Assembly (NCBI GenBank): GCA_964383495.1
Contig: CAYLHG010000003.1
Span: 17,771 to 81,770 of the forward strand
Direction of reading: 5' to 3'
Origin: an uncultured Gammaproteobacteria bacterium
GTDB taxonomy: Bacteria > Pseudomonadota > Gammaproteobacteria > JABCZS01
Length of the DNA stretch: 64,000 nucleotides
The translations under genes and the position numbers were made by a program. Below, one piece after another: positions 25,860 to 62,394 of this stretch. Numbering within the stretch: the stretch's first letter is position 1; every line of letters starts with the position of its first letter. Under the pieces are notes generated by a model that saw nothing but the letters and a program-made list of their open reading frames with translations, was not told where the DNA came from and made no database searches.

Positions 25860-27416
25860 TTAGTGTCGCTTGCTACTGCCAGAGGCTGAAGCGTAAGGTT
25901 GTGCTGCAGCAGCAATAACAGCTGGCGCCATTAAAGGTGCTTGTCCATGCAAATGCTGGACATGCACATATCCTTTAGCGCACGCCGGGTTATATTGCCA
26001 ATGTAATGTGGTAGGATTACATTGCAAAGCACCTAAACCTACTAAGCGCTGCGTGACACCTGGTTTATCTTCTGGATTTTTAAGTGGGCTTTTACCTGAA
26101 TTGTTATTTGGTTTCTGATCTAATGAGGAGGACTGCGCAACACGCAGCTCTCGCATTAATAATAAGGTGTTTGGATCATTTAAAGCGACAGGGTAACTTA
26201 CCATTTTATTACCTCTAAGGGGATCCTTGTACTGAATTTGATCTATTATCTGCTCGTTTGATTTACCTAACAACACTGTCAGTACTTCATTTTCAATAAA
26301 ATCGATTGCATCAAGCGTAGGAAGCTGCATGGGCGCTGCACGATGTTTAATATAATCAATATCAACCACCTGGTGTCTTCCATCATACTTTACATACTTT
26401 TCCGTTATCAATATGTTTATTTTTCGACTTGCTGCTAAAATTTCTGCATTATCAACGCTTCCTCGCAACAATAAAAACCGTTCACACGCACGATAACAAG
26501 CATGAAAAATAAGTTTCTTTTCGTAAAACATATTAGGTTCATTCCATGTGCCTAGGCTTATTAAAGCTGTTCCTACAATCTTCTGCATGTTGAGAAGTAA
26601 AGCATTATTTTGCATTAGAGCACGATACATATCCATCCTATCCATAATATCTTGCTTATAAACATCCAGCCGATACTGCGCTGTTACTGGCGCAAAGCCT
26701 GCAGAAATGAGCGCAGACACACGGCTGCCAATAAACAATACACCCAATACAAAAGCACCGATTCCTAAATCCCCATCAAAAACGGTGGCTGCATACGCCA
26801 TGAAAATAATAGCACTAAACACTGTGCCTAAAAAACCATTAAAATCATGTGCGTACCGGCTTGCTTGCATGTAGCGAATCGCTCGGGAAGGCCCTACTTC
26901 CTCCGTTTTGTCTGTCTTACTATTCACTAACTCCTGCAGCTTCACCTGAGCGTCGTAATATTGCTGAATCTTATGGTGGTTGGCTGCACTTCCCACAAAC
27001 ACTGCGAACATGTTCATTAACATTCCCGCATTGATGACTAAAGCAGCCCACAACGGCATGTCCTGAATCGCTACCCCTATACTTTTAATAATCGCATCAA
27101 CATGGGATACGTCACCCCCTGCGTGCATCGCAGCATCTGCCACATTAAACGCCTGTATGGCAATGGGCACTAGCACGATAGCCAACACTGCCAGAATGGC
27201 TATATTCGTCATAATACGCACGATACGGGAAATATGGGCCGCCCATCCTGCTTTCAAACGCCCATCAAATGCCCAATTGCCAAAGTCAAATAGGAAAGGA
27301 ACCCAGTGCTTGGTGTATAAAGCTCGCCCCTTTGCAAAAAAATGCCAAAAAATTCCCGAACCTTTGTGAGAATGCCCGTGACTGTGCGCTTCACCAGCAT
27401 GGCTGTGACTCCCCAT
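25860..27416 (-). CDS. Hypothetical polytopic membrane protein with His-rich N-terminus (MGSHSHAGEAHSHGHSHKG) and a ~270-aa C-terminal soluble domain
   Basis: 518-aa ORF, 11 bp upstream of queF on the same strand and divergent from znuC. Several hydrophobic helices between residues ~60 and 240. Confidence 0.6.
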   Translation of the reverse strand: MGSHSHAGEAHSHGHSHKGSGIFWHFFAKGRALYTKHWVPFLFDFGNWAFDGRLKAGWAAHISRIVRIMTNIAILAVLAIVLVPIAIQAFNVADAAMHAGGDVSHVDAIIKSIGVAIQDMPLWAALVINAGMLMNMFAVFVGSAANHHKIQQYYDAQVKLQELVNSKTDKTEEVGPSRAIRYMQASRYAHDFNGFLGTVFSAIIFMAYAATVFDGDLGIGAFVLGVLFIGSRVSALISAGFAPVTAQYRLDVYKQDIMDRMDMYRALMQNNALLLNMQKIVGTALISLGTWNEPNMFYEKKLIFHACYRACERFLLLRGSVDNAEILAASRKINILITEKYVKYDGRHQVVDIDYIKHRAAPMQLPTLDAIDFIENEVLTVLLGKSNEQIIDQIQYKDPLRGNKMVSYPVALNDPNTLLLMRELRVAQSSSLDQKPNNNSGKSPLKNPEDKPGVTQRLVGLGALQCNPTTLHWQYNPACAKGYVHVQHLHGQAPLMAPAVIAAAAQPYASASGSSKRH

Positions 27417-30630: not shown

Positions 30631-31959
30631 TTAAGCCGATAAAGATAACAATAATCGAGGCAATTCGGGGATTAAATAAAAAGGAATAGACAAAATTTGC
30701 TTATCCCATTGGGGTAGATCAGCCCAAATACGCGCTCCGCACAAAGATTTTTTTTCTTCCATAAATAATTGTAATGATTTCAGCCGCCCGGTGCTACCCG
30801 CTTTAACTTCAATAGGGATAATATTATTTGCCACTGTTAATAAATAATCTATTTGAGCTTGACTATTTTTTGCCTCTCTACACCAAAAAAATAAATGAGG
30901 ATCATCATCCATTGCTTGCAACGCTAACAACTCTTGCCCTACAAATTGCTCTGCTAATTCACCAGCATTTAAAAATAAAATATTTTGATTCAATAGCAGA
31001 TCCGCTGTCAATAAACCACTGCAATTCGCCAACCCAATATCAATAAATAATAATCTAAATTTTTTTAGATCAATGACTGCTGTTAAAGGCAACCCCGCTG
31101 CAGCCGTTCTATAAACGGGGCAAAGCAACCCTGCATTAAATAAATTTTCTAATGCTTGCTTTATTGCAACAGCGCGTATATCAGGATCAATTTTATTATA
31201 TTTTACCCACTGCGATACAAATTGAGGCGCCTGCTTCAACAAAGTTTCTAATAAAGCATGCTGAGTGTGTTTTGCATACTTCCCAAAATCCAATCGATAA
31301 CTTGCTAATAATGCTCGTTGCACTTCTTGAGCACGTAAAAAGCTACCTGTTTCAAAATAAGCATTCAACACGGCAGGCATCCCCCCTAGTACCGTGTATT
31401 CTCGAATAAGCGTTATAAGTTTTTCATGTATCGGTAAAGCGAGAGGAGACGTCATATCATAATGGCGTAAATAGTCTTTTAATTTTTTATGCCCAGCTGC
31501 TTCTAAAAACTCATAAAACGTCAACGGCTTAAGGTATAAAAATTGTACGCGCCCCACAGGCATACGAAAATTTTCATCACGTAAAGCAAATTCTAATAAA
31601 GATCCTGCCCCTACCACATGTAACGCTGAATACTGCTCTTTAAAATAGCGTAGTGCCATAATAGCATTGGGGCACTCTTGAATTTCATCTAAAAATAAAA
31701 GTGTTTCTCCAGGAATAATAGGTATCTCAGATAAGACCTCAAGCAGGGCGGTGATTTTTTGAGGATCCAATGTATCAAAACATGCCTTGTATTCTGGACG
31801 TTGCTCAAAATTAATAACACAAAAATGCTTAAAATATTTTCTGCCAAAATCGGTCACCAAATGGGTTTTACCCACTTGCCGAGCGCCTCGTACCAATAAA
31901 GGGGAGCGCACAGGATTGCCCTTCCAATCTAAAAGCTGAGCCAAAGCATCTCTGTCCAT
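30631..31959 (-). CDS. AAA+ ATPase, DUF4143/AAA_14 family (intact copy)
   Basis: Walker A LLVRGARQVGKTHL, Walker B LLFLDEIQ, DUF4143-type C-terminal region. Confidence 0.75.
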   Translation of the reverse strand: MDRDALAQLLDWKGNPVRSPLLVRGARQVGKTHLVTDFGRKYFKHFCVINFEQRPEYKACFDTLDPQKITALLEVLSEIPIIPGETLLFLDEIQECPNAIMALRYFKEQYSALHVVGAGSLLEFALRDENFRMPVGRVQFLYLKPLTFYEFLEAAGHKKLKDYLRHYDMTSPLALPIHEKLITLIREYTVLGGMPAVLNAYFETGSFLRAQEVQRALLASYRLDFGKYAKHTQHALLETLLKQAPQFVSQWVKYNKIDPDIRAVAIKQALENLFNAGLLCPVYRTAAAGLPLTAVIDLKKFRLLFIDIGLANCSGLLTADLLLNQNILFLNAGELAEQFVGQELLALQAMDDDPHLFFWCREAKNSQAQIDYLLTVANNIIPIEVKAGSTGRLKSLQLFMEEKKSLCGARIWADLPQWDKQILSIPFYLIPELPRLLLSLSA

Positions 31960-37947: not shown

Positions 37948-38873
37948 ACGGATGGATTTTATATAGCCAAGCAGCATCGCAATTAAATGAAAAACATTAT
38001 GAAATGCAGCGTTTTATTGAAGCTGCAAAGGCACTGAATATTACGTTGCACATTCTTAAACCAGAAAACGTATCTTGGGTAGTAGACGCGCAACATCCCT
38101 TACAATTATTTGTTTGCGGGGAACCTTACGCTACACCTCATTTTGTGATTGCACGCCAAGGGTTTAATACCACTTATCCTGCACTTGCACTGTTGAATAC
38201 ATTAGAACATCATGGCGTATTTTTATGTAACCATGCGCGCGCTATTCAAGCAGCGCGAGATAAATATTTCATGCATCAACAATTTGTTAAACACGGGCTG
38301 CCCACCCCCAAAACCATGCTCGCACCTTACCCTATTGATTATACGTACATTGAAAAACATATTGGATTTCCATTAGTATTAAAAATACTCAACGGTAGCC
38401 AGGGCAGGGGAGTAATGTTGTGCGACACACCCTTAGCGCTTCAAAATATGTTGGAGTTTATTTACAATTACGATCGCAAAGCCACTACATTATTGCAAGG
38501 TTACATTGCAGAAAGCCGCGGACGTGATTTGCGCGTGCTCGTGCTAGGTGGGAAAGTTTTGGGCGTATTTGAACGTTCTTCTGAAACAGATTTCAAAGCC
38601 AATTTTTCTCGCGGTGGAAAAGTAGCGCCTTTTTCCATCAATGCAGAAATAGAGCAATTAGCATTATCTGCCACGAAAATTGCAGATTTAAGCATGGCTG
38701 GTGTGGATTTATTATTTACCAATACAGGCTATACATTGTGCGAAATTAATTCTTCCCCAGGTTTTCAAGGGTTTGAACGAGCGTTGGGTGGTTCTGTTGC
38801 ACAAGCCATGCTGGAGTATTGCATACAAAGCTTAAAATCCAAAATTTGCGCCCCCACGGGACCCCCCATCTGA
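37944..38873 (+). CDS. ATP-grasp ligase of the RimK family, coupled to the pot operon
   Basis: RimK-like motifs (DK...GFPLVLK..GSQGRGVML, LLQGYI.ESRGRDLRVLVLG, DFKANFSRGG, GVDLLF...CEINSSPGF). ATGA overlap with potI. Confidence 0.7.
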   Translation: MNGWILYSQAASQLNEKHYEMQRFIEAAKALNITLHILKPENVSWVVDAQHPLQLFVCGEPYATPHFVIARQGFNTTYPALALLNTLEHHGVFLCNHARAIQAARDKYFMHQQFVKHGLPTPKTMLAPYPIDYTYIEKHIGFPLVLKILNGSQGRGVMLCDTPLALQNMLEFIYNYDRKATTLLQGYIAESRGRDLRVLVLGGKVLGVFERSSETDFKANFSRGGKVAPFSINAEIEQLALSATKIADLSMAGVDLLFTNTGYTLCEINSSPGFQGFERALGGSVAQAMLEYCIQSLKSKICAPTGPPI

Positions 38874-41432
38874 TGATGGATGATTTCTTTGGCTTTGTCT
38901 AACATACATCGGCATTGTAGCCTGCTTGTTAAATATTTCATTTGTTTTATCTAACATTTTGTTTGCTGCAGCTTCCCTATCGCTCTCACTATTGATAGTA
39001 ATTCCTGTACGAAAGGATGTCATGGAAGTGCTTTCACTGGGAGCCGTCCGAGCAATCAGCTTTGGCATAGTTATAATATAGCTTACGATGCCGTGTATGA
39101 ATTCTTCATAATCTGTGTTACTTGTGATGAGTATGACATCTTTAGGTTTGATGTTTTCAAGAAGGTGTAAAAATTCTTCTCCCATATGCCCTAAATACTC
39201 ATTACAATCATCTAGAACCCAAATAATATTTCCTGTTATACGATTTCTTGTTGCCTTGATACCACCATGGCTTTTAACGCTTTCTGGGTTTAAATAAATC
39301 GACTGCATGCCTTGCTGTACCAATATTTTTATGACGGAAATAACTAAATGTGTTTTCCCTTCTCCGGCTTTACCGTGCAAAAACATTCCAATCGCTCTAT
39401 CTTGATGTTCATTGGCAAGGGCTTTAAGGACACGCTGTGCATCTTCGTACCATGATTTTTGCTGCTCACTCTTGAGAGTGTAGTTGCTCAGCTGCGAACA
39501 ATAATTTTCTACGGGGATAAGATCTGTCATTTTATGAAAGAAAAAAAGATCGCTATGAAGTAACTTTAAATTTCCTTCTGTCATGTTACCTAAACTCTCC
39601 TGCGTCACAGCTTGATTTTTTACTTCAAGCGCTGGGTAGAAGCGGGATAACTCTGTTGCGAATATGAACGAAATACCTTTATTGTAATCCTGAATGCTCC
39701 GAAGTAATTCTGCGCGTAATTCAACATCACCGGCAGCACCATGGACCCTCTCGGACCGCATCCGCTTGGTTTGTTCGGCGTAGAGCAGTGCATTTCTTTC
39801 TATGCAGCCCAATAATTCACGAAAACGACGAAACAAACGCTCAGAATCTCTCGTGTCCACTGTCTTAAAGAACCGCATAAACTCAATAGGGCTTACATCT
39901 GTTTCCACACATAAATAATCACCATACTGGTGACAATGAATAATAATTTTTCTCAACTCTTCATTATAAGATGTATAAGTTTCAAGATGATTAAATACCC
40001 ATACCCTTGTTTTACTATTGCTCAAACTTTGAGGATGATATTTACGCAAATATTCTGAGGCAAGCCATGTCTGGTGAACACCCAGAGCATCTCGCTCCAT
40101 CTCCTTGAGGTTAACTTCAATAAAAACTGCTTCGGGAAGATCGGGTAACTGCTTCCGCGCCCCTTTACCCCAAAATAGAGTCTGGAAGGCGAATTTAGAG
40201 TTGTTGGGCTCAAATGCCATCCTCTCAGAAGCAGAAGGAAGCCAGGCGGGAAGAGGGGGCTCATAATAACTGGAAGAAGAGGAACTGGAAGAAGAGGAAG
40301 AATTAGCATGAGAAAGGGCGTTGTTGGTAGTGCCAGCGTATAAATCATCGATAGCATCTATAATCCACTCTCCATCTCCATCAGCTCTAACTTGCAGAAA
40401 AGTTGTTGAACCATCATCAAGGGGCCGTATAATAGGCCTTCTAGAACCCGCATTTGTTACCTGCTTTTTTTGTTGTTCTTGTTCTTTTTTCTCTTCCTCC
40501 CTCGCAATTCTCAACGCTATTACTACCGATTCATCGAGTTGTTGGGGTGCTACTGACGCTGACGTTCCCCCAGCAGAAGACCTTTTCAGGTGAAGCAGAG
40601 TAAGCATGGTAGCAACACAGCGTAATACAGGCTTATAAACTGGCGGTTGCAATAAAGCTACAGCAACTTTACTCCACCCTACTGATTCTGATAAAAATAA
40701 TGACGCTGAGTCTAGCTGCAGCAAAACCTTTGCAACGTGGAGCTTGTGGTCGCCGTGATATGCTCTCTTGATAATTTCTTTCAAAATGGCCGCAGTATGT
40801 TGATCTCCAACAATATCTTCCAGATAACTTTCTAAAAGCGTAGCGCAATATGTTACCTCTTCACCTTCTTTTATAGCCTGAATAATGGGCGTTAAATTAT
40901 CATCCTCACTTGCCAAAGTCGCATAGCTTATTGATAGAGAAGGAGAAAACCGCACCGTTCTATGAAGCAAGAGTCTCGGCCTTTTTACAGGTAACCATGG
41001 CATCTCTGCGATGCTAGTATCGCCCTGTGGCAGTGCTCTCTTTTTTAATTCGGGGAAAGCAGGATCCATGCAACTAGCATCCACAAGACCGCCATCAAGC
41101 AGCTTCCTTCTTTCATTCTCTTCATAGCGTTCTAATAGGCGTATAAGGCTATGAGTAAGTAATTTAGCATGTTTTTGTAAGCAGCTCCGCCCCAGCAAAG
41201 TCCACTGCAGCTCTCCTGAAACCTTAATAACAAAAGGAAAAACTTCGGCAACCAAGCTAAAAAATCGCTCCTTTTCTTGTGGAGAAGCCAGCTCATTGAG
41301 AGCTTCAACGACTTTATCGTCTCTAAAAGGTGCAGCAAGGAAGCCAAATTGCATAAAATAAGCGCTAAGCGCCTTTTTAGCATCGTCTTTATTAGTTTCC
41401 GCTAAATGTAGAATAGCTTTAGAATCAAACAT
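38832..41432 (-). CDS. Hypothetical 866-aa protein with poly-Ser tract and C-terminal P-loop NTPase-like domain
   Basis: Walker A-like HGKAGEGKTH and Walker B-like IIWVLDDCNE near the C-terminus. A run of 11-12 Ser mid-protein. 3' end overlaps the convergent RimK-like gene by 42 bp. Confidence 0.55.
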   Translation of the reverse strand: MFDSKAILHLAETNKDDAKKALSAYFMQFGFLAAPFRDDKVVEALNELASPQEKERFFSLVAEVFPFVIKVSGELQWTLLGRSCLQKHAKLLTHSLIRLLERYEENERRKLLDGGLVDASCMDPAFPELKKRALPQGDTSIAEMPWLPVKRPRLLLHRTVRFSPSLSISYATLASEDDNLTPIIQAIKEGEEVTYCATLLESYLEDIVGDQHTAAILKEIIKRAYHGDHKLHVAKVLLQLDSASLFLSESVGWSKVAVALLQPPVYKPVLRCVATMLTLLHLKRSSAGGTSASVAPQQLDESVVIALRIAREEEKKEQEQQKKQVTNAGSRRPIIRPLDDGSTTFLQVRADGDGEWIIDAIDDLYAGTTNNALSHANSSSSSSSSSSSYYEPPLPAWLPSASERMAFEPNNSKFAFQTLFWGKGARKQLPDLPEAVFIEVNLKEMERDALGVHQTWLASEYLRKYHPQSLSNSKTRVWVFNHLETYTSYNEELRKIIIHCHQYGDYLCVETDVSPIEFMRFFKTVDTRDSERLFRRFRELLGCIERNALLYAEQTKRMRSERVHGAAGDVELRAELLRSIQDYNKGISFIFATELSRFYPALEVKNQAVTQESLGNMTEGNLKLLHSDLFFFHKMTDLIPVENYCSQLSNYTLKSEQQKSWYEDAQRVLKALANEHQDRAIGMFLHGKAGEGKTHLVISVIKILVQQGMQSIYLNPESVKSHGGIKATRNRITGNIIWVLDDCNEYLGHMGEEFLHLLENIKPKDVILITSNTDYEEFIHGIVSYIITMPKLIARTAPSESTSMTSFRTGITINSESDREAAANKMLDKTNEIFNKQATMPMYVRQSQRNHPSSDGGSRGGANFGF

Positions 41433-41511: not shown

Positions 41512-42696
41512 TTAATTGGAAGCACCAGCAATAAAGTAAGACAATACATCTGGCTCGTCCACCGTATTGCACTCCGTTGAAGGTGGGTGCGGGCGATTAG
41601 CAGGAGGCACTACAGGGTATATCTGAGAGTGGAAAGTTTTTTCCCCTGCTTCTATCGACGCGTATGAAGGCGCAGAGCAGATGTAGGTGTTGAGCACTTT
41701 TCTAATATAGAACACGTAGGTTCGATCTTCGTAACGAATCGGCTTTACAGCATGTCGCGTCCACATGCCTCCCTTACTGGGCTCTACCCAAATGACCTCA
41801 TCATCACCCGACCATAGCGCTTCGGTAAGCGGCGCACTTGTCATTCTGGTACGGCCTTTACCCTCTTCGCCGTTGTAATATAATTGCAATTCGTTATTAA
41901 CGCTCAACACGCCAATCGGCGTTTTTGCTGGCAATGAAATTTTGCCTGAACGATGCAACGCATCCCATTGATTATTTTTTGCATTATAACGATGAAAAGC
42001 AGCGTAATTTCCATCGCGGATTAACCATAACGTTTCTTTATCCCCATTATCTAACGTTAATGTTATTAAACTTGCGGGCTGCTTGTTTTTTGAGCTTTTA
42101 ACTGGCACATCTTTACATGACAACGCGCTATTTGCTGATGCCGCGCAACGCAACGAAGCGGGATAATGTTTCCCACCTTTATCATAATATGCCAGCAACA
42201 TTGCATCTCCTTCAGGCGTCAATGCAGTAGAAAGATGATCATGTTCAGGGTGGCCTTTCACATTTAACGCTTGATATTCGCGTTTACCAGGACCGTCTTG
42301 AGTATGCGCGATTAAATCATCTAAACTATCAAAATAATTGTAAATAAGATGGCGGCCCTCTTCACGATGACGCCCAATTAAATATAATTTATCTGCAAAC
42401 TTTATAGGAGCAGGGGAGAAACCACCCGCTGTGAGCACAGAAGTTTTAAGCTCATAATGCATTTCATCCCACAATAAAGTGCCTTGATTATCTGCACGGC
42501 CCACCATAAAACCCACTTTTTGGTGCTTCCCTGGCACGCGGTAAAATAACACAAGCACTTCTTGTCCTGCGCTATCTTCCATCACAATCGCATCCGGCGT
42601 TAAAGGCGGATCTTGAATGCCACCCATATCAGCCCCAAATGAAGCAAGTACAGGTATTACGGCTAAACATAATGCGATGATCGCTTTTTTCATCAT
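41512..42696 (-). CDS. Secreted paralog family member 1 (signal peptide; beta-strand-rich repeats)
   Basis: Shares GPDAIVM.D..G.(D/E)(V/A)LV.FYR, LYL(F/I)GR, H.IYN.F..L.DLIAHT and DHLS.A motifs with the next three genes. Confidence 0.6.
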   Translation of the reverse strand: MMKKAIIALCLAVIPVLASFGADMGGIQDPPLTPDAIVMEDSAGQEVLVLFYRVPGKHQKVGFMVGRADNQGTLLWDEMHYELKTSVLTAGGFSPAPIKFADKLYLIGRHREEGRHLIYNYFDSLDDLIAHTQDGPGKREYQALNVKGHPEHDHLSTALTPEGDAMLLAYYDKGGKHYPASLRCAASANSALSCKDVPVKSSKNKQPASLITLTLDNGDKETLWLIRDGNYAAFHRYNAKNNQWDALHRSGKISLPAKTPIGVLSVNNELQLYYNGEEGKGRTRMTSAPLTEALWSGDDEVIWVEPSKGGMWTRHAVKPIRYEDRTYVFYIRKVLNTYICSAPSYASIEAGEKTFHSQIYPVVPPANRPHPPSTECNTVDEPDVLSYFIAGASN

Positions 42697-42739
42697 GGTA
42701 AGATCGTTCCCTTAAAAAAATTAACTTGCTGATGATCGA

Positions 42740-43867
42740 TTATTGCGAGTCGACAAAATACCATAATCGCGGACCTGAAACTCTGTTACACGACTTACTG
42801 CGATCACACACACGTTCTGGGTCTAGTTTTGAAAAGAGTACATAAGCTCTGTCCTTAAATACAATCGGTTTAATCGCTGCTTTTACTTCAAACTGCGAAG
42901 TCACATCCGAGTCTTTAACCCAATAAGCCTTATCGTCTAATACTTCACTTACCCATGCAAATTTTTTAAGCATGCGCTCCACATTATAATGTGGATCAGA
43001 AAAATATACTTGCAGCATACCATTTATGGTAAAAGCGCCGATAGATTTATTCGCTAATGTGTGGCCAGATGAAGTGTACAATGACTCCCATGCATTTTGA
43101 GCAGGATCAAATTTGCTCAATGATAAATGACGATTCTCGCCTGCCATGACCATCACTGTTTCCATCGCGCCATTCACAGAAATAGGCGCAATAGCCATCA
43201 TACTCTTCGTATTCACATCCGGCGTAGTAACAGGTTCGCACATCAGTTCACCTACCCATCGCTCAACACAACGTGCTGAAGAAAAAGGTAAGCTTGATTT
43301 CTTTTTGTTCCTCTCGTAATAAGTGAATACAATGCTATTGTCTACTGGAGCTGCAGCAAAATAGGCCAATTCTTCATGGCCACGAATAGGTAAGGGGTTT
43401 GGATCCATACCAACATGCACATTTTTAAACTCACGATTACCCGCGCCGCTACGAGTATGTGTAATTAAATCCTCAAGATTGACAAAAGAATTGTAAATAA
43501 TATGTCTGCCATCCCCATGCGTGCGATCTCGACCAAACAAATATAATCTGTCGCCCAAAAGCACCGGCGTAGGGGGATTACCATCGGCCACCATCACAGT
43601 GTTTTTAAGCACATAATGCTCGTCTTCCCATTTCAACGCGCCACTGTCCGGCGCTGCCTCTTTTGATATGACGAAACCAACCTGATCTTTTCCTTCTAAA
43701 CGATAAAAGACAACTAATGCGTCACTCCCTGCGGCATCTTTCATCACAACCGCATCAGGTCCAACTGGAGCATTGATAACACTATTACCTATGCGAGCCT
43801 CTGTAGTAGCGGCACCTGCAACCACCGAAAAACTCAACATCCATAAACTTATTAATCGCTTGAGCAT
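42740..43867 (-). CDS. Secreted paralog family member 2
   Basis: Same motif set, signal peptide. Confidence 0.6.
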   Translation of the reverse strand: MLKRLISLWMLSFSVVAGAATTEARIGNSVINAPVGPDAVVMKDAAGSDALVVFYRLEGKDQVGFVISKEAAPDSGALKWEDEHYVLKNTVMVADGNPPTPVLLGDRLYLFGRDRTHGDGRHIIYNSFVNLEDLITHTRSGAGNREFKNVHVGMDPNPLPIRGHEELAYFAAAPVDNSIVFTYYERNKKKSSLPFSSARCVERWVGELMCEPVTTPDVNTKSMMAIAPISVNGAMETVMVMAGENRHLSLSKFDPAQNAWESLYTSSGHTLANKSIGAFTINGMLQVYFSDPHYNVERMLKKFAWVSEVLDDKAYWVKDSDVTSQFEVKAAIKPIVFKDRAYVLFSKLDPERVCDRSKSCNRVSGPRLWYFVDSQ

Positions 43868-43885
43868 TTTTTATTTCCCTCTCAA

Positions 43886-45019
43886 TCACTTTACTTCAAT
43901 ATCGCTGAAATAATACAATTTATCTGCATATTCAGCACAACCATATTTGTCGTAAAAATTACAATAAAGATCCTTAAAAAACACATAGACCCGATCACCA
44001 AAAATAATGGGCTTCACAGCATCAATACTTTCAAATGCCTCCCCGCCCATACCTTTCTTTCTTGTAGCTATTGTCCATGAAGCATCAGGAGAAAAAATTT
44101 CATCTGACACAACATGTGTTTCCAAAATATTTGCTGTTTTACTATTGTAATAAACATGTAGATTTCCATTAACCTCAACCATTCCCATGGGCAGAAAACC
44201 TTTTAAGTCATATAAAAAGATACTATGAGATTCGACCCACTCATTATGCGCGGAATTGAGCTGAAATATATCCCAAGTATTCTCACCATCTTTCACAAAT
44301 AACAATGTTTCAAGCGCTCCATTGACAGTGACTTGTGTGATCACAGTAGGTGCCTGGTATTTAGAAGTCGGCACAGTGACATCTTTACAAGAGAGCAAAT
44401 CTGTATTGGTACTCTTGGGTGTGCACCGTGATGAAGAAAAAGGCATTGCAGATGTTTTTTTCTCGTTTTTTTCATAATATGCTAACAAAACAGCACCATC
44501 AACAACAGCAGCAGATAAGTGATCAAATTCTTTATGGCCTTTTATTCCCAACTCTTTGAAAGAGCGATCACCTGATCTTTCTTCAGTATGAGCAATCAAA
44601 TCTTCTACATTTTCAAAAGAATTGTAGATAAGATCTCTTCCATCATTTTTTTCCCTCTCTCTACCAAATAAATACAACTTTCCGTCCAGCATCACAGGCG
44701 CTGGAGAAAATCCACCGGCTTTCATCACTTCTTCTTTTAATACGTGCGGTTTATCCCATAATAAATTAGCGCCATTCTCACCGACTCCTCGAGAAACAAT
44801 AAATCCTACTTTTTGGGAACTTCCTTTTAGTCGATAAAAAACAACTAACACATCGTTGCCAATGCTATCTTTCATCACAATCGCATCTGGCCCTAAAGGA
44901 AGTTTCTTTTGGATTTCGCCATTACCACCCACGAGCCCACTCACCATAGGCGCATTTGATGCAAATAAGGGGAGTGCAATGATGCTACATACCCACAACA
45001 ACAATAGTTTTTTAATCAT
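43886..45019 (-). CDS. Secreted paralog family member 3
   Basis: Same motif set. Start set at MIKKLLLLWV (ATG 45019, GAGGA RBS) rather than the ORF-track start. Confidence 0.6.
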   Translation of the reverse strand: MIKKLLLLWVCSIIALPLFASNAPMVSGLVGGNGEIQKKLPLGPDAIVMKDSIGNDVLVVFYRLKGSSQKVGFIVSRGVGENGANLLWDKPHVLKEEVMKAGGFSPAPVMLDGKLYLFGREREKNDGRDLIYNSFENVEDLIAHTEERSGDRSFKELGIKGHKEFDHLSAAVVDGAVLLAYYEKNEKKTSAMPFSSSRCTPKSTNTDLLSCKDVTVPTSKYQAPTVITQVTVNGALETLLFVKDGENTWDIFQLNSAHNEWVESHSIFLYDLKGFLPMGMVEVNGNLHVYYNSKTANILETHVVSDEIFSPDASWTIATRKKGMGGEAFESIDAVKPIIFGDRVYVFFKDLYCNFYDKYGCAEYADKLYYFSDIEVK

Positions 45020-46199
45020 TTCCATTCCTCTTTTCTTCATTAACCCAATAAAAAACTTCATCTGGAAACGAAATTGTAATAGGCTGCGGGCGAGGCCCGT
45101 TTGGTCCAGCGCCAACCCCGGTTTCTTGCTGATCCGGTATATTTCTTAAATAAAAGATATAAATGCGATCATGATATACGATTGGCTTAACAACCTCTGC
45201 TGTCATTAATAAGTTTCCTTCAGGGTCGTGCAATTTGATAGGCTTACTCCATACTACTGGCTCAGACGGCGATGCTTCATCATGGACCGGCTCTTTTGTC
45301 ACCACAGACGCTTTTGTCATCATGATAGGTGCTGATTTTTTATCTTCTTTATAATATAAATACAATTCGTGATTAAAGCTCACCGCGCCCACAGGCATTT
45401 CAGGCGGCAAATTTAATTTTGCGGAACTCTGAAAATTCATCCATGTATTTTGGTGCTCATCATAATGATGCACCCCTAAATATTTATCATCCCGCATTAA
45501 CCACAACACTGCTGTGCTGTCATCAGGAAAAGAAATGGGAACAAGTTCTGCAGGCTGCTTGTGTTTGTGACTCTCCACTAACACGTGCTGGCACGATAAT
45601 AAAGCACTATTTTGTTTGGGCTCACAACGCAAAGAAGAGGGCACTGTTTTTCCGTTTTTTTTAGTCTCGTGTTTCGCATGATAAGCCAACAAAATTGCAT
45701 CATCTCCTGGCACTGCAGCTGCAGAGAGATGATCGTGGTCCTGATGTCCCTTTATACCTAAATCTTGGAAAGGGCGATCTTTATCTCCATCAGTAGTATG
45801 AGCAATCAAATCATCTAAATTTTCAAAATAATTATAAATAAAATGTCTGCCATCTCCATGAGTGCGATTGCGGCCAAATAAATACAATTTATTATTCAAC
45901 AACACTGGCGCAGGTGAAAAACCACCTGCCATCATCACTGTTGATTTGATCGTATACGGGGCGTCATCCCATATTAATTTTGCAGAATCAGCCTGAGCCC
46001 GCCCCACCACAAAAGCTGCGCGCTGCGAATCGCCTTGTAGCCGGTAAAAAACAACCACAACGTCTTGACCTGAGCTGTCTTGCATGACGATCGCATCAGG
46101 GCCCAGGGGAATATCTTGTATGCCTAATTGGCCTTCCGTTACCGCAAAAGCCGGCAAGAATACTAACCAAATAACCCATGTGATAACTAATTGTCTCAT
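45012..46199 (-). CDS. Secreted paralog family member 4
   Basis: Same motif set. Start set at MRQLVITWVIWLV (46199). Overlaps the start of member 3 by 8 nt. Confidence 0.6.
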   Translation of the reverse strand: MRQLVITWVIWLVFLPAFAVTEGQLGIQDIPLGPDAIVMQDSSGQDVVVVFYRLQGDSQRAAFVVGRAQADSAKLIWDDAPYTIKSTVMMAGGFSPAPVLLNNKLYLFGRNRTHGDGRHFIYNYFENLDDLIAHTTDGDKDRPFQDLGIKGHQDHDHLSAAAVPGDDAILLAYHAKHETKKNGKTVPSSLRCEPKQNSALLSCQHVLVESHKHKQPAELVPISFPDDSTAVLWLMRDDKYLGVHHYDEHQNTWMNFQSSAKLNLPPEMPVGAVSFNHELYLYYKEDKKSAPIMMTKASVVTKEPVHDEASPSEPVVWSKPIKLHDPEGNLLMTAEVVKPIVYHDRIYIFYLRNIPDQQETGVGAGPNGPRPQPITISFPDEVFYWVNEEKRNGND

Positions 46200-46407
46200 T
46201 TTCCACAACCTTAGAATACCCAAAACTTCTTCAAGCATAAAGGAATCTTATGCAAATGTCCATGATATTAATTTTTCGTTAATCACATCACGGCTAACTC
46301 GTTAATATTTGAACCAGATAAAGCAGACTAACTAGCTAATTTTAACCTACCAAGCGGTTTAAACTATTTCTTAAAGCAACAAGATATGGATATAATACAG
46401 AAACCCG

Positions 46408-48612
46408 TTGCATGTAAGGATCTTGAATATGGCAATACCATTATTCTCACGCATCTCCATCCTATCCCTACTCGGGTTTACTAGCCTGGCCTGTCAGGGG
46501 AAACCGCTTGCTTGGTACGAAACCTGGCCCACGCTTCCTTCCCCAATCACCGTTCCTGCAGAGAAAAGCTTTGTAGAGCAACGCATTGCGCAAATGAGTG
46601 TGGAAGAAAAAATAGCACAAATGTTGATGGTGGAGCATAATGCTGTCACGCCTGAAACCGCTTCTGCATATAAACTGGGTGCGATGTTACACGCTGGCGG
46701 GCAAGCAACGTTTCATATACATGGGAAAAACGCTGTTTCCCTTAAATGCCGAACAGCTACCTATTTGAGCTTGAGTTGTTGGGGTGAATTGGCAGATGCC
46801 TATTGGGACGCATCCATGAAGGCATTATGGCATAACAATGCCGCTCCCATTCCTATATTATGGGGAACAGATGCCATGCACGGGGCAGGCGCTATTCACG
46901 GTGCAACACTTTTTCCGCATAATATTGGATTAGGCGCAGCATTAGTAGGTAACCCGAAAAATCTTATGTTGCTTGAACAAATGTATGAAGCAACCCGCGA
47001 ACAGGTGGCACTGCAAGGATTTCGGCAAATTTTTGGGCCAACAGTGACCGTGGCACGCAACACTCATTGGGGCCGCACTTACGAAAGCCTCTCTGAAAAT
47101 CCTATTATTCAATACGAATCTACACCTTTTGCTGTAGTAGGTATACAAAAACCATGGACAGATACTAACGGCAATCCCCAACGCATCGCAGCTACATTGA
47201 AACATTTTGTAGGGGATGGTGGAACAACCACTGGAACAGGTTATGTCACCAAAGCAATTGACGCTGGCTTTGACCCCACAGATACCGTTTATACATATCC
47301 TCGCACTGATCGCGGTTTAAATGAATATAGTGAAGAAATGTTGATCAATTTACACGCGCCGGGTTATTTTTCGGGGATTACTACAGGCGCAATGAGCGTC
47401 ATGGTTTCTCTGAGCAGTTGGCAAAACGGAAAATTACATGCTGATCATTATTTGATCCAAGAAATATTAAAAGATCGCTTACAATTTGATGGTATTGTTG
47501 TGACTGATTGGGAAGGGTTTGCGGCAGTAGAAGGCTGCTCGGTGAATGATTGCCCCGCAGCGATTAATGCTGGCATTGATTTATTCATGTTTGGTTTTGA
47601 TAAACCTAATGCATGGAAAAATTTCTACAACAACACCATACAACATATTTCAACTGGTCATATTTCCATGGATCGCATTGATGATGCCGTGCGCCGTATT
47701 TTACGTGTGAAATATCGACTGGGTTTTTTTGCGGAAAATTCATCTTATAAACCCTCGCAAACTTACTCCGCGTTTGGTTATGCTTCTATTGATGATGCTC
47801 AAAAATCACTTAACAAATGGAAAAATTTTGCTAAAATATTAGCAGAAAAATCCATGGTATTAATGAAAAACAACGAGCAAACTTTGCCATTAGCAACAAC
47901 ACAATTCACTGAAGAAACACCTTTGTTGGTTGCAGGAAATGCGCTCAACAGCCCCGCAATGCAGGTCGGCGGCTGGAGTTTATATTGGCAAGGCTTTAAA
48001 CGATCAGATAACAACCCTTTCTACAATAAAGCAGATTATCCTCAAACCATTACGGTATTGGATGCGCTGGAAAATAAAAACATTGCCATTTGCGAATATG
48101 AAAAAAATACTGCTTGTGCTGTCAAAGCTAAAACAGCACTGGTTGTCATGGGAGAACATCCTTACGCAGAATGGTATGGCGATATTCATACCGGCGATGT
48201 AAAAGGCGGGAGGCAAACCATTGCCTATAAAACCATTCGTGAAGAATATGCTGCAAATGAACAATTGGTAAAAGATTTAAAGCAAAAAGGGTACAAAGTA
48301 ATCACTGTATTTTTCTCAGGGCGTCCGCTAGTGGTTGATGCGCTAAACAACAGCGATGCTTTTATAGCAGGCTTTATCCCAGGCAGTGAAGGCGGCCCGG
48401 CTGTGGCCGACTTATTATTTGGAAAAACTTCTTTTGAAGGTCGCTTACCTTTTGCTTGGCCCACTCGCGTAGAAGATACAGCAATATTTCATGGAAAACC
48501 CAGTCATTTTCCAGGTGATAATGAAGCTTGGCTGAATGCACTGAGCAAAGAAAAGGCAATAGAAGTATTGGTGGGGCCAGAGCATCCGTATCCATATGGA
48601 TCCGGCTTATAA
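46408..48612 (+). CDS. Glycoside hydrolase family 3 (beta-glucosidase/BglX-like), probable lipoprotein
   Basis: GTDAMHG and VVTDWEG (nucleophile Asp) motifs. Lipobox SLAC after a signal peptide. True start may be 46429. Confidence 0.8.
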   Translation: MHVRILNMAIPLFSRISILSLLGFTSLACQGKPLAWYETWPTLPSPITVPAEKSFVEQRIAQMSVEEKIAQMLMVEHNAVTPETASAYKLGAMLHAGGQATFHIHGKNAVSLKCRTATYLSLSCWGELADAYWDASMKALWHNNAAPIPILWGTDAMHGAGAIHGATLFPHNIGLGAALVGNPKNLMLLEQMYEATREQVALQGFRQIFGPTVTVARNTHWGRTYESLSENPIIQYESTPFAVVGIQKPWTDTNGNPQRIAATLKHFVGDGGTTTGTGYVTKAIDAGFDPTDTVYTYPRTDRGLNEYSEEMLINLHAPGYFSGITTGAMSVMVSLSSWQNGKLHADHYLIQEILKDRLQFDGIVVTDWEGFAAVEGCSVNDCPAAINAGIDLFMFGFDKPNAWKNFYNNTIQHISTGHISMDRIDDAVRRILRVKYRLGFFAENSSYKPSQTYSAFGYASIDDAQKSLNKWKNFAKILAEKSMVLMKNNEQTLPLATTQFTEETPLLVAGNALNSPAMQVGGWSLYWQGFKRSDNNPFYNKADYPQTITVLDALENKNIAICEYEKNTACAVKAKTALVVMGEHPYAEWYGDIHTGDVKGGRQTIAYKTIREEYAANEQLVKDLKQKGYKVITVFFSGRPLVVDALNNSDAFIAGFIPGSEGGPAVADLLFGKTSFEGRLPFAWPTRVEDTAIFHGKPSHFPGDNEAWLNALSKEKAIEVLVGPEHPYPYGSGL

Positions 48613-48615
48613 ATA

Positions 48616-49038
48616 TTAAGGGATATCTTCTATCCAAATCATTAGCTTCGCCAAAGGCGTATCTTGCAATATATTAAATAATTTTTGATCAGCAGTTACC
48701 AGCAAACATTCTTCTTTTAACGCCAAAGCAACATACAGTGCATCATAGAAAGTGCACTGATATGTTATTGCTATTTGCCATGCATCATTCAGCAATAGTT
48801 CAATAGCACAGCTCTCGAGGGGTAGACGTTGAAAATCTGATAAGATTTGACATGCGTCCTCTTTAGATATTTCTTTGAAACGCTGCTTTTTCCAAAGAAT
48901 ATTCCCTATCTCAGCAAAAAGCAAATTTGGCACTAATAATTTAGTGTTTTTTTTCCACAAATTTTGTGCATGTAAAGTGTAATTTTCTGGAATAAACCAT
49001 TTAATAGCAACACATGCGTCGACTACTACTGTTTTCAC
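48616..49038 (-). CDS. vapC: PIN-domain toxin (VapC-like)
   Basis: MKTVVVDACVAIKW N-terminal acidic residue plus conserved downstream D/E positions. Stop 4 bp from the GH3 stop. Confidence 0.75.
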   Translation of the reverse strand: MKTVVVDACVAIKWFIPENYTLHAQNLWKKNTKLLVPNLLFAEIGNILWKKQRFKEISKEDACQILSDFQRLPLESCAIELLLNDAWQIAITYQCTFYDALYVALALKEECLLVTADQKLFNILQDTPLAKLMIWIEDIP

Positions 49039-51905: not shown

Positions 51906-54383
<2,478 letters not shown>

Positions 54384-54786
54384 CTACCATTTTTTGCCTC
54401 AAAAGGGGAAAAGTGATTACGAAAAGAGGTGAATATCAACACTTAACTAACTTATGCTCTAGAGGGCAAGGGATACATATGCAAGGCATTTTAACGACAC
54501 TTCGACAAAGGGAGTATGGAAAAAATCAAGCTTTAAAGAAGTCTTGAAGCAAAGGAAATTATTGATACGTTTTTAAGTAAACATGAGCCCCTTTTTTTCG
54601 ATCATTACTCAATCGGGCGAATCTTAACAACAAATTGAAGCAAATGACTATAAAGGGCGCGTAAAAGTCCTTTCTCAAGCATTGACAGAGCGAATAGCAT
54701 TCATAGAGCCTTCCATGCCGCCCCTACACTACAAGAAATGATACCCAGCATACCGCAAAGATCAAGAGGACCGAAGTAAGCAAGGA

Positions 54787-54802
54787 TGTTCCACGTGGAA
54801 CA
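54787..54802. promoter_or_regulatory. parS-like palindrome TGTTCCACGTGGAACA (perfect 16-mer)
   Basis: 15/16 match to the Bacillus-type parS TGTTCCACGTGAAACA. Symmetric. Confidence 0.6.
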
Positions 54803-54944
54803 ATGAAAGAAAAGCAGAAAGCTAGGGTAGATCGCACAAAAAAACCCCCGATTCCCTGCGCGAATCTGCCCCGCCCGGATCAAATCTGGGCCAAGCTAAA
54901 AAGGAACAGCACATGCTTAACTATAAAAAGCATTTTTTAGAAAA

Positions 54945-55130
54945 TTGAGAAACAATCAAACTGCTGCAGAAAAATTACTGTGGCGTTTTTTAGGAAAAAA
55001 ACAAAGCTTAAACACAAGTTTCACCCGTCCAAAGCCCATAGGGCCTTTTATTGTGGATTTTTATGCAAAATCTGCAAATTTAATCATTGAATTTGATGGC
55101 GGCCAACATTACGATAAATGTGAGCGCTAA
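54945..55130 (+). pseudogene. Truncated DUF559 (Vsr-like endonuclease-domain) gene remnant
   Basis: 61 aa: AAEKLLWRFL...FTRPKPIGPFIVDFYAKSANLIIEFDGGQHYD matches the DUF559 core, then stops. Confidence 0.55.
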
Positions 55131-55298
55131 TAGATAAAAATAGAGATTCGTATTTTGCGCTTTTAGTTTATCCGTATTGCGATTTAATAATTTGAAGGTT
55201 TTGTTTAGCACAGAGCCGGGGTAGCGGATGATAAGATAGCAGGCAAGCCATATTCGCGTAAGGATGGGAGTTTATTGAGCTTTAGTGAGGCGGCGAAT

Positions 55299-55314
55299 GT
55301 TCCACGTGGAACCA
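55299..55314. promoter_or_regulatory. parS-like palindrome TGTTCCACGTGGAACc
   Basis: One terminal mismatch to the local consensus. Confidence 0.55.
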
Positions 55315-55568
55315 TGAGGAAAATCGATGGGCTGGAGAGCAGATCATGCAAGAAACCTCTCGATTCGTGGAGTTTATTCCCCCGCGAAAGCGGAAACCGA
55401 CCACCCCGTCAGCATCAAGTCCAGAGCAATGCCTAGATCAAATCCGGGCCAAGCTTTTAGAGGGTAGGTGAGCAGCACAGCTGCGAAGCGGGATTCTCAT
55501 GTCACAGAGGACAAGAAAAGAGATCTAATGTCCCGTAAAGATCGATGGGGCCAAGGTAAGGATCGCAT

Positions 55569-55584
55569 GTTCCACGTGGAACTA
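55569..55584. promoter_or_regulatory. parS-like palindrome TGTTCCACGTGGAACt
   Basis: One terminal mismatch. Confidence 0.55.
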
Positions 55585-55759
55585 CAAGGAGAGCAGTGAA
55601 GCAAGTATCTTGTGCAAGAAAACCTCGTCTCATGCTCCGCGCCCGCCTGCCTCTTAAAAGGGGGCTATTAGCAATGTTATTGGTGAAACACTCCCGATTC
55701 GCGGAGTTTATTCCATGCGCAAGCACAATATGCGGGGGTTTTCTTCCTGCGTAATCATC

Positions 55760-56836
55760 TTAAACAACCGTAACCGCTCCATGTTCCACGTGGAACACCG
55801 CACGCTCACGCTCACCACCAAGATCTATTTTCTCTACGCTCGTTAAACAAATTTGGGCATCTAATATAGACAAACGCTCATTTAATAAAGCTCGCGCACC
55901 TTTATCTAGCTCAGAGGGCAGGTCATCTATCAATAATGTTGGACGTTTTCCTGTCTGCTCTATCATCCAGGATACTTGCGCCAATTGTAAGCCTGTTACA
56001 AATGTTTTTTGTTGCCCAGTAGACAACACTTGCGCAGCAGGTTTTTCGTTTACTTTGATTTTCAAATCAGCACGATGTGGGCCCGCGTGTGTGAACCCTA
56101 AAAACATATCCCGCTCAGAAGAAGCCAGCAAAGCCTCCTCTAGGCTTGTCCCTTTTGTCCAGCCCGGCTCATAGAGTAGTCTCAAATCAGAGACACCAGG
56201 CAGCCCTTCTAACGCAATTAAAAAAGAAGGTAAGCAGACATCTAAAATGGAGCAACGTATTTCATGTAACTTTTGGCCTGCTGCAGCTAATAAACTTGTC
56301 CATAAAGACAAATCAGAACGCGCACCTCCAGAAGCACGCAATGCTGCATTGCGTTGTTTCAATAAACGATGGTACTCTCGCCAAACCGCATGGAAAGAAG
56401 GTTCCACGTGGAACATTAACCAATCCAGCCATCGACGCCGCTCTTCAGGAGGATCAGCAAGCAGTTGGTAACCCTCCAAGTTGAGAATTTGAACCGGAAG
56501 CAGTTGTGCAAGTGCAGCAATAGAACCAGCAGGTTCATCATTAATGAGGTAACTATATTTCTCATGTGCATTTTTAATGCACTTCAGTGTGCAAACCAGA
56601 CCATCGTCCAATAGCACCCGAGCACCGATTTGACACGTTTTTTTTCCATGAGAGATCGCTGTAGACAGCTGGGAAGCACGAAATGATTTGCCCGTACCTA
56701 ATATATAGATGCTTTCAAGAATAGAGCTTTTTCCAGCCCCGTTGTCACCGTAAAAATAATTAAGCCCAGGGGAGAGGGTGATGCACTCAGAAGATAAATT
56801 GCGTATATGGTTGCACTGTAAGACTTCAAGCGTCAT
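55760..56836 (-). CDS. recF: DNA replication and repair protein RecF
   Basis: Walker A GDNGAGKSS, signature and Walker B regions. C-terminus VFHVEHG resembles E. coli MFTVEKG. Confidence 0.95.
   Translation of the reverse strand: MTLEVLQCNHIRNLSSECITLSPGLNYFYGDNGAGKSSILESIYILGTGKSFRASQLSTAISHGKKTCQIGARVLLDDGLVCTLKCIKNAHEKYSYLINDEPAGSIAALAQLLPVQILNLEGYQLLADPPEERRRWLDWLMFHVEPSFHAVWREYHRLLKQRNAALRASGGARSDLSLWTSLLAAAGQKLHEIRCSILDVCLPSFLIALEGLPGVSDLRLLYEPGWTKGTSLEEALLASSERDMFLGFTHAGPHRADLKIKVNEKPAAQVLSTGQQKTFVTGLQLAQVSWMIEQTGKRPTLLIDDLPSELDKGARALLNERLSILDAQICLTSVEKIDLGGERERAVFHVEHGAVTVV
55782..55797. promoter_or_regulatory. parS-like palindrome TGTTCCACGTGGAACA (perfect), inside the last codons of recF (encodes VFHVEH)
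   Basis: Seen in sequence. Confidence 0.6.
56400..56415. promoter_or_regulatory. parS-like palindrome gGTTCCACGTGGAACA inside recF coding (encodes MFHVEP)
   Basis: Seen in sequence. Confidence 0.55.
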
Positions 56837-60716: not shown

Positions 60717-61796
60717 TTATGGAATGGGGCACCCTGCCCGTTTCCCTTGAAACAACGATACCTCTTTCATAAGCTGCTCAAAATGAGAAGAGGTATCTTT
60801 GATGCAAATGAAATTAAGATCTTGTTGTTCCGATAGCAGGCCACTTAACCCCGACAGGCTTCTAGTAAATGAGTTTACTTGGTCTTGGGGGATACACAAA
60901 TCTTTTAAAGATGAAAACAGCGCAGTTTGCTCATCTTTAGGAAGCACCACAAATAATAAATCCTCGTGCATAAAAACTTTATTCACATGAAAATCTTTTA
61001 CATTTAGCATTTCTTTTAATGTGTGTTCAATCAGCAAAGAAGAAGGCGTACGATACGAACCACCCACTTTATGAGTGCTTCCTTCGCTGCTTATCTTAAA
61101 TGCAACAACCTCATTCGACAGCTCCTTACAATTGAACTGATGGAAATTAGGAGTCATGCGACCATGCGGTGAAATAAAACCTGCAGTGTGACAAAGATCG
61201 CCTAATTTTTCTATAACCTTAATTCGATTATCTCCAGAAATCTTAATGCCTAACGTTAACACAGGCGTCTCTGTCCCTGCACCAGATATATCCGGCGCAA
61301 AAGAAAATGAACATCCACTATCCTTTAGAACAGTTGCACAATACTCTCGTAATGTTAGCAGCATGAGGTTAGTTTCAAAAAACAGATCATCAAACCTTGC
61401 CGAGTCAAAGTGCCTTTTAATGGCTTCAGCGCTCACCAACATTTCTGCTGCATTTCGCGCAACGGTTGTTGAGGCGCTGGGGACAGGCGCATGCAGCTCA
61501 CTCATTTTACAACTGCTAAACAACACTTGAGCCAAATCATGCCCCAAGAAGTATGGCTCATTACCGGCGCTCCCTACCTTTTGCAAGAAGGTTGCATGAA
61601 GCTCTGACAAGCCTCCCCGGTAAACCTCGGGTAGAAAAGGCTCCGACGTAGAAGGCCACTGAATTTGGACCATACAATGGTCTTTTTGTTCGTTTTCGAT
61701 AATCAAGACCTTGACGGAATTTTTTAATGATTTAACTTGATTAATCTTATGAATAAACTCATTGATTTCTTTCTTTAGCTCTATCAACGTTGGCAT
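60717..61796 (-). CDS. Hypothetical 360-aa protein adjacent to oriC
   Basis: Start set at MPTLIELKK (ATG 61796 with GGGGGG RBS). No recognisable motifs. Confidence 0.5.
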   Translation of the reverse strand: MPTLIELKKEINEFIHKINQVKSLKNSVKVLIIENEQKDHCMVQIQWPSTSEPFLPEVYRGGLSELHATFLQKVGSAGNEPYFLGHDLAQVLFSSCKMSELHAPVPSASTTVARNAAEMLVSAEAIKRHFDSARFDDLFFETNLMLLTLREYCATVLKDSGCSFSFAPDISGAGTETPVLTLGIKISGDNRIKVIEKLGDLCHTAGFISPHGRMTPNFHQFNCKELSNEVVAFKISSEGSTHKVGGSYRTPSSLLIEHTLKEMLNVKDFHVNKVFMHEDLLFVVLPKDEQTALFSSLKDLCIPQDQVNSFTRSLSGLSGLLSEQQDLNFICIKDTSSHFEQLMKEVSLFQGKRAGCPIP

Positions 61797-61911
61797 ATTA
61801 CCCCCCTGAAAACAAACTAACCAATCTTTTGTGCATATTATCACAGCCCAGCTATAGCTTATTAAGCTTTTGAATAACTTAGCAAGTTGTTGTAAAGTAC
61901 CCTGTGTGGGC

Positions 61912-62394
61912 TGTGGATAACAACAGGTCACGCCTTGTTTATATCGAGATAAGTAGAGTTATCCACATCTTACCCCAATTAGCCCCCAAAAGAGTGATCG
62001 GTTTCTCCACAATTAAAACCGTTTTAATCTGTTGAAACATAACAAAAAAATAAACTTATCCACACAATATGCGATCCCTTATAGTAATAATATTTCTTTA
62101 TATACATATATAATATTATTGTAAATGAGCGCATACAACCCTTTTAGAACCCGAAGACATTGTCTAGCAAAAAATGGTCAGTCGAAAAATGAACGCAGTA
62201 TTTGTGTAGACAATCCATGGAACAAAATTGTTAAGTAACGAGTTATTAGATGTGCATAACCCGCCCATATTTTCCTGCCCAAGAAAACACCCACACTTAT
62301 CCACAAATGCCGATATGGCTACACCCCCTATTACCCACATCAAAGCATCGGCCTCAACTAATTAATATTAAAAGCATTAAATGGCTTATCCACA
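61912..62394. other. Putative oriC: DnaA-box cluster plus AT-rich unwinding element
   Basis: TGTGGATAA at 61912. TTATCCACA at 61959, 62056, 62297 and 62386. TTcTCCACA at 62003. AT-rich tract ~62085-62125 (tagtaataatatttctttatatacatatataatattattg). Confidence 0.7.

Follow-up and report, generated by a model that had tools for sequence, protein, structure and literature searches.

Four tandem paralogs of a rare family of predicted exported six-bladed beta-propellers in an uncultured gammaproteobacterium

What kind of protein is encoded by four consecutive and related minus-strand genes in the chromosome of an uncultured Gammaproteobacteria bacterium, and what might such proteins do? The array lies in a 64,000-nucleotide stretch of contig CAYLHG010000003.1 (assembly GCA_964383495.1, positions 17,771 to 81,770), hereafter the window, in which all coordinates are given. 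An earlier reading made from the sequence alone (the sequence-only reading) had described four secreted paralogs of 375-395 amino acids (aa), roughly 30-45% identical and produced by an old tandem expansion, that could be assigned to no family, and had suggested a role in carbohydrate or host-surface interaction from the adjacent glycoside hydrolase family 3 (GH3) gene. We propose that the four genes are ancient tandem duplicates belonging to a rare family of proteins of about 350-415 aa exported by the general secretory (Sec) pathway, each of which would fold, after signal-peptide cleavage, into a single six-bladed, four-stranded beta-propeller and would serve as a non-catalytic binding module, lectin-like or protein-binding, in the periplasm or outside the cell. 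To this reading, i.e. exported, disulfide-stabilised, non-catalytic binding propellers diversified by tandem duplication, we give a probability of roughly 0.55. The genes of the array and the region upstream of it, in order of transcription, are as follows.

46200-46407, no strand: intergenic region separating the divergent paralog D and GH3 genes, presumed to contain the promoter of the array
45012-46199, minus strand: paralog D, 395 aa with the start at MRQL; transcribed first, and the one whose product was modelled
43886-45019, minus strand: paralog C, 377 aa from the MIKK start; database protein P0002
42740-43867, minus strand: paralog B, 375 aa; diverges most among the four and has blade 2 extended by a 9-residue insertion; database protein P0001
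41512-42696, minus strand: paralog A, last gene of the array, 394 aa, its last strand preceded by a Pro-rich insertion; database protein P0003

The number, strand and size of the genes were confirmed in the open reading frames (ORFs), and the blocks quoted in the sequence-only reading (GPDAIVM.D..G.DVLVVFYRL, LYLFGR, IYN.F.NLEDLIAHT and DHLSAA) were all seen in the alignment of the four paralogs, whose pairwise protein identity was measured at 32-45%. Two gene starts required a choice. The mechanical ORF of paralog C is longer and reaches a TTG at position 45115; its 377-aa product was set by the family alignment and the database entries. The start of paralog D is ambiguous, a public annotation placing it at ATG 46238, 13 codons upstream (408 aa), and we favour ATG 46199 (395 aa), which is backed by the family alignment and the register of the putative signal peptide. 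The paralog C ATG overlaps the paralog D stop by 8 nt, and with intergenic gaps of 43, 18 and -8 nt the four genes have the appearance of a single operon, divergent from the GH3 gene. A single promoter-like site was found in the intergenic region (46262-46234, minus strand); no promoter or terminator signal at the array rose above the expectation from shuffled sequence. DNA identity among the paralogs does not exceed 60-74% even in the best blocks, which indicates an old duplication, as had been proposed, with no homogenisation since, and rules out recent gene conversion; at such protein and DNA identities the synonymous sites are saturated. The genes were recovered more than once: a one-residue variant of paralog C (P0006) came from another sequencing run, and paralog A with part of paralog B was found again on an independent Logan contig (L002).

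The family to which these proteins belong is very rare. No significant match was found for the paralogs in Pfam, NCBIfam or PADLOC, and the family profile found nothing significant among PDB sequences (only Kelch matches, with E values of 0.2 or worse), in keeping with the earlier statement that no family could be assigned; confident placement in a known glycoside hydrolase or lectin family, which would have overturned that statement, did not result. An exhaustive hidden Markov model (HMM) search of 1.84 billion representative proteins gave 27 matches, which supports the earlier proposal of a lineage-specific family; about 22 of the matches are complete members, 350-415 aa long and carrying a predicted signal peptide. 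Four further matches were partial and fell on repeat proteins: P0025, P0029, P0028, which begins with a clear family-type propeller followed by further sequence, and P0030, a 1281-aa Enterobacter protein with about 25 blade repeats. Five proteins came out of a word-indexed search of 5.8 billion clusters: three from this array, plus P0004 and P0005. P0004 is a fifth paralog, 48% identical to paralog C, from sequencing runs numbered close to one carrying the genes of the window, and its one-residue variant P0007 adjoins dnaJ. The clusters of the family members are singletons, mostly from Logan assemblies or single metagenome contigs, and the members with any name at all are called "hypothetical protein", one of them from a metagenome-assembled genome labelled "Gammaproteobacteria bacterium". 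A scan of JGI metagenome contigs with alignment A4 found one 1.2-kb fragment with a family match; a scan of reference genome contigs with the four-paralog alignment found no relatives, its patterns being so specific that distant members may be missed. The family is thus lineage-restricted and undescribed, with no named member and no solved relative. Several copies per genome are not peculiar to the window: P0014 and P0012 form a tandem pair at locus L085 (5122-7369; Logan SRR21359129) beside miaA-hfq-hflXKC, and the same sample carries P0010 on another contig, making at least three copies there. Because this pair is independent of the array, the family has undergone tandem expansion more than once. 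No further copies turned up when every fetched locus was scanned with an HMM.

The N-termini of all four paralogs consist of a region rich in Lys and Arg followed by a strongly hydrophobic core, with a 12-residue Kyte-Doolittle mean of 2.1-3.2. The aligned -1 position holds a small residue, which is Ala in 21 of 23 family members, and the arrangement of n-, h- and c-regions with small residues at -3 and -1 and no lipobox Cys, judged manually and by hydropathy, is that expected for Sec export and cleavage by signal peptidase I. The paralogs are therefore probably exported with cleavage of the signal peptide, and since no Cys follows the predicted cleavage site they would not be lipoproteins. 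In the alignment of 23 sequences all members have C203 and 22 have C192 (paralog D numbering); the two may well form a disulfide in blade 3. Both the N-terminal features and the Cys pair are consistent with the earlier description of the proteins as secreted.

The paralog D protein was modelled with AlphaFold2. With six sequences the predicted local distance difference test (pLDDT) score was 69; with the 23-sequence alignment it rose to 84.9, with a predicted template-modelling (pTM) score of 0.87. The model is all-beta, with 24 main strands in six four-stranded blades, and the N-terminal strand of the mature protein (residues 22-28) probably completes blade 6 and so closes the ring. A propeller or other all-beta fold had been guessed earlier from hydrophobic strands ending in aromatic residues, and the model bears this out. 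Every blade opens with one A-B hairpin pattern (a small residue or Pro, a hydrophobic run, a turn and L-Y-x-F-Y), and the sub-profiles of blades 1, 2, 5 and 6 find each other weakly (hhalign E values of 4e-5 to 7e-4). A Foldseek search of the PDB returned generic six-bladed propellers, headed by the human sialidase Neu2 (E 1.8e-7, TM 0.57), with scores of about 22.6 for fucose lectins of the Aleuria aurantia lectin (AAL) type, 20.2 for Kelch (LZTR1) and 18.5 for NanM; a pseudaminidase (2w38, 3h6j) and a GH93 arabinanase (3a72) are also among the fold matches. In the model, then, the backbone appears closest to the sialidases of glycoside hydrolase family 33 (GH33), and the proteins constitute a new sequence family on a well-known fold.

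The residues by which a sialidase is recognised are missing from this backbone. Asp boxes (S-x-D-x-G-x-T-W, searched as [ST].D.G..[WFY]) occur in none of the 23 members, and an Arg two positions before Pro34, as in the FRIP (x-R-x-P) motif, is found only in P0024 (VRTP); the invariant Pro34 may itself correspond to the FRIP proline. Conservation across the family is almost confined to hydrophobic and aromatic residues, Pro, Gly and Cys (P34, L75, P98, G109, L131, L201, C203 and Y347, with C192 and some aromatic positions nearly invariant). Judged by the sequence alignment, the Arg triad, the Tyr/Glu pair and the acid/base Asp of sialidases are not conserved: no position is Arg, Glu or Asp in all 23 members, and the aromatic residue of blade 6 strand A, where the nucleophilic Tyr would sit, is either Tyr or Phe. 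The family profile aligned to the Neu2 sequence with a probability of 0.75% in hhalign, and none of the 23 members matched a Pfam sialidase or BNR_2 model; BNR_4 (E 0.019) and Neuraminidase-like (E 0.0078) each gave a single weak match in one member. A canonical GH33 sialidase was rejected on these grounds, i.e. the apparent lack of Asp boxes, FRIP arginine, catalytic residues and profile match. It is because a GH33-like backbone is found without catalytic or signature residues that we read the proteins as non-catalytic binders.

The distribution of conservation over the blades is uneven. Mean identity among the four paralogs is 52% in blade 1, 59% in blade 2 and 42% in blade 3, and it is 23% in blade 4, 25% in blade 5 and 29% in blade 6. 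When the two loop faces were compared by assigning residues to strands and loops from the strand boundaries of the model, the loops of blades 1-2 were conserved on both faces in the close subgroup (0.39-0.57 identity), and the top-face loops of blades 3-6 were almost free to vary (0.02-0.25). Six polar residues, D41, R53, Q59, R110, R118 and H152, are invariant in the close subgroup and all lie in blades 1-2, which suggests that an anionic ligand or partner could bind at a basic site there. With only blades 1-2 conserved, a central active site of the sialidase kind, built from all blades, does not fit; a module with one constant half and one variable half does. We infer that the near-constant blades 1-2, and in part blade 3, presumably hold a common site, rich in Arg, His and Gln, for a ligand or for docking, and that blades 4-6 would have diverged almost freely to give each copy a different surface.

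Several points weigh against binding propellers of this kind. The signal peptides were judged by eye and by hydropathy; the best fold matches are enzymes; "binding" is argued from missing catalytic residues; the 23-sequence alignment averages 27% identity, at which a catalytic residue in the loops could be misaligned; and the polar residues invariant in the close subgroup could form an active site specific to that subgroup. A glycan-binding role is possible by analogy, through the fold likeness to sialidases and fucose lectins. A bolder version, which we put forward as doubtful, is that these are exported "pseudo-sialidase" propellers, descended from or converged on the sialidase fold with loss of catalysis, that act as expandable receptors for glycans or host proteins in uncultured, probably host-associated, deep-branching Gammaproteobacteria, the constant blades 1-2 providing a shared site for an anionic ligand or anchor and the fast-evolving blades 4-6 a specificity that differs between paralogs.

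Degenerate Kelch-type propellers, working as periplasmic or secreted scaffolds for protein-protein contacts or as sugar mutarotases of the NanM type, are an unlikely alternative, and one that overlaps in mechanism with the binding propellers proposed here. The signals at the level of sequence are all Kelch signals: the family profile matches P0025 at E 3e-15 over six repeats and P0029 via blade 4, both of which are Kelch proteins by Pfam; the best PDB sequence match is the Kelch domain of KBTBD2, at a non-significant E value of 0.2; Kelch_1 is weakly matched in 2 of the 23 members (best E 0.0073); and the Kelch signature of GG and Tyr/Trp is resembled in blade 2 (LYLFGG/R) and blade 4 (YD..N.W), the only blades in which it is recognisable. 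Against this, no Kelch model exceeded the Pfam gathering threshold in any of the 23 members. The profile of the family aligned to E. coli NanM with a probability of 5.8% over 29 columns, and no sialic-acid gene context was found within the window. In P0025 (779 aa) and P0029 (500 aa) the family profile matches repeated "YFELHRYDPVHNQWHVL" Kelch blades, which P0025 carries in fusion with a eukaryote-like Tyr/Ser/Thr protein kinase domain; the blade-4 motif is all that the two proteins have in common with the family.

Less likely still are very divergent glycoside hydrolases of GH33 or GH93 type, acting with non-canonical catalytic residues, and perhaps alongside the GH3 protein, on a sugar of acidic nonulosonic or other type. 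The pseudaminidase and arabinanase among the fold matches, the divergently adjoining GH3 gene and the invariant Arg, Asp and His of the close subgroup speak for such an enzyme. The missing Asp boxes and FRIP motif, the lack of any family-wide invariant Arg, Glu or Asp, the Tyr or Phe at the would-be nucleophile position, the poor alignment to Neu2 with no Pfam sialidase model matched, and the low identity (about 20-25%) of blades 4-5 speak against it. All three subgroup-invariant arginines lie in blades 1-2, unlike the sialidase triad, and the GH3 adjacency is not kept at nine other loci of the family. Housekeeping envelope components, functionally like TolB or BamB and with an incidental tandem array, would account for the signal peptide, the propeller fold and the members found among housekeeping genes (dnaJ, aroQ, miaA-hfq, comEC), but are highly improbable: the family is extremely rare (about 22 clusters among the 1.84 billion representatives), has several fast-diverging copies per genome, resembles neither the TolB nor the BamB family, and has no envelope machinery as a conserved neighbour.

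The two genes that flank the array are the following.

46408-48612, plus strand: GH3 protein (Pfam E 2.8e-50 and 1.8e-27), gene start TTG
38832-41432, minus strand: 866-aa protein, 79 nt downstream of the array, no family match

The GH3 protein is divergent and BglX-like, and scores below every NCBIfam GH3 equivalog cutoff. It had been called a lipoprotein GH3 beta-glucosidase; the GH3 assignment holds by Pfam, and the lipoprotein part is doubtful, the residues up to the Cys being T-S-L-A-C and not the canonical L-[AS]-[GA]-C lipobox. The 866-aa protein contains a run of 13 serines (SSSSSSSSSSSSS) and, as had been noted, a P-loop: a C-terminal AAA+ region, at about residues 646-780, weakly resembles DnaA, DnaC, IstB and STAND proteins. 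It had no PDB or PADLOC match. At nine other loci the neighbours of family members are these.

L003: dnaJ
L001: aroQ, RNase H, RNase T and an oligopeptide ATP-binding cassette (ABC) system
L085: miaA-hfq-hflXKC (tandem pair of members)
L084: unannotated proteins, an APH-type kinase and a methyltransferase
L086/L087: Fic and GFA
P0020: a MacB-type ABC transporter and ComEC
L089: five unannotated genes
L090: a TraI_2 relaxase
L092: PP2C, ankyrin and many unannotated genes

Neither the GH3 protein nor the 866-aa protein stands beside a family member at any of these nine loci, which have no conserved neighbours, so that conserved synteny with either is ruled out and the two adjacencies are specific to this genome and probably incidental. 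Nothing ties the GH3 or the 866-aa protein functionally to the array, and the carbohydrate role formerly drawn from the GH3 neighbour loses its footing, the sequence hallmarks of the glycosidases that the fold recalls being missing as well. The presence of eukaryote-like and unannotated genes beside members at other loci may point to host-associated bacteria.

The window itself is core chromosome near the replication origin, with dnaA, dnaN, recF and gyrB at 51.9-59.4 kb and rnpA and yidD at 62.7 kb; it also holds topA, dprA, trkAH, a pot-type ABC transporter and purEK, and no Rfam family was matched in it. GyrB is at most 69% identical to that of any GTDB species representative found, and in a quick neighbour-joining tree it is basal to a clade with Legionella, Legionellales, Chromatiales and Thioalkalivibrio, a placement that is uncertain; by identity and tree position the source is a deep-branching gammaproteobacterium. 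In this otherwise housekeeping region four large genes have no Pfam or NCBIfam match and could encode lineage-specific, effector-like proteins; they are listed here with the other features of the window.

4042-6210, minus strand: 722 aa, no family match
22528-24105, minus strand: 525 aa, no family match
25860-27416, minus strand: 518 aa, no family match
60717-61931, minus strand: 404 aa, no family match
1207-2043, minus strand: 278-aa protein with a C-terminal TcpQ domain (Pfam E 5.6e-14), a Pfam name taken from toxin co-regulated pilus biosynthesis protein Q
54330-55760, between gyrB and recF: 1.4 kb without an ORF of at least 120 aa
16955-17896 (minus), 21431-22339 (plus), 30631-31959 (minus) and 48616-49038 (minus): scattered genes of toxin-antitoxin or defence type

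The stretch between gyrB and recF probably consists of decayed genes and holds a 61-aa fragment (54945-55130) that we take to resemble a remnant of a DUF559/Vsr-like endonuclease. The scattered defence-type set comprises an AbiEii nucleotidyltransferase toxin, two AAA_14/DUF4143 ATPases, one of them apparently truncated, and a 140-aa ORF that is PIN/VapC-like by eye and has no NCBIfam or PADLOC match.

Genomes of this type often encode secreted families that are specific to a lineage and built on common folds, and the claim made here is a modest one on either interpretation, with no new principle indicated. The analysis gives the family a confident fold, an alignment of 23 sequences and a set of candidate residues (the C192-C203 pair and, in blades 1-2, R53, Q59, R110, R118 and H152). 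As inactive binders on the sialidase fold the proteins would be a bacterial case in which an enzyme scaffold was turned to recognition and multiplied by tandem duplication, and they would also offer a marker for a gammaproteobacterial lineage that is poorly sampled; as enzymes they would form a new glycosidase family with non-canonical catalytic residues.

Among known systems the GH33 sialidases (human Neu2, PDB 1snt; Micromonospora sialidase, 1eur) have the six-bladed beta-propeller in common with the family, at an identity of only about 10-12%. In GH33 enzymes the Arg triad is supplied by the first blade and the C-terminal blades, the latter holding half of the active site, whereas in the present family the C-terminal blades are the least conserved part. 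Fucose lectins of the AAL type (Aleuria aurantia lectin, 5mxc; AofleA, 7c37; SapL1, 6trv) are built from near-identical blades with a repeated Arg/Glu/Trp site; the family has no such repeats, only blades 1-2 being conserved, and the AAL-type lectin profile PF07938 matched none of the 23 members. The Kelch-repeat propellers, including NanM/YjhT, are resembled in the six blades and in the Kelch-like "LYxFGG" and "YD..N.W" signatures of blades 2 and 4. NanM, a six-bladed propeller of the periplasm, is about 368 aa long and has a signal peptide, and the proteins of the family, at about 370 aa and with a predicted signal peptide, are like it in both respects.

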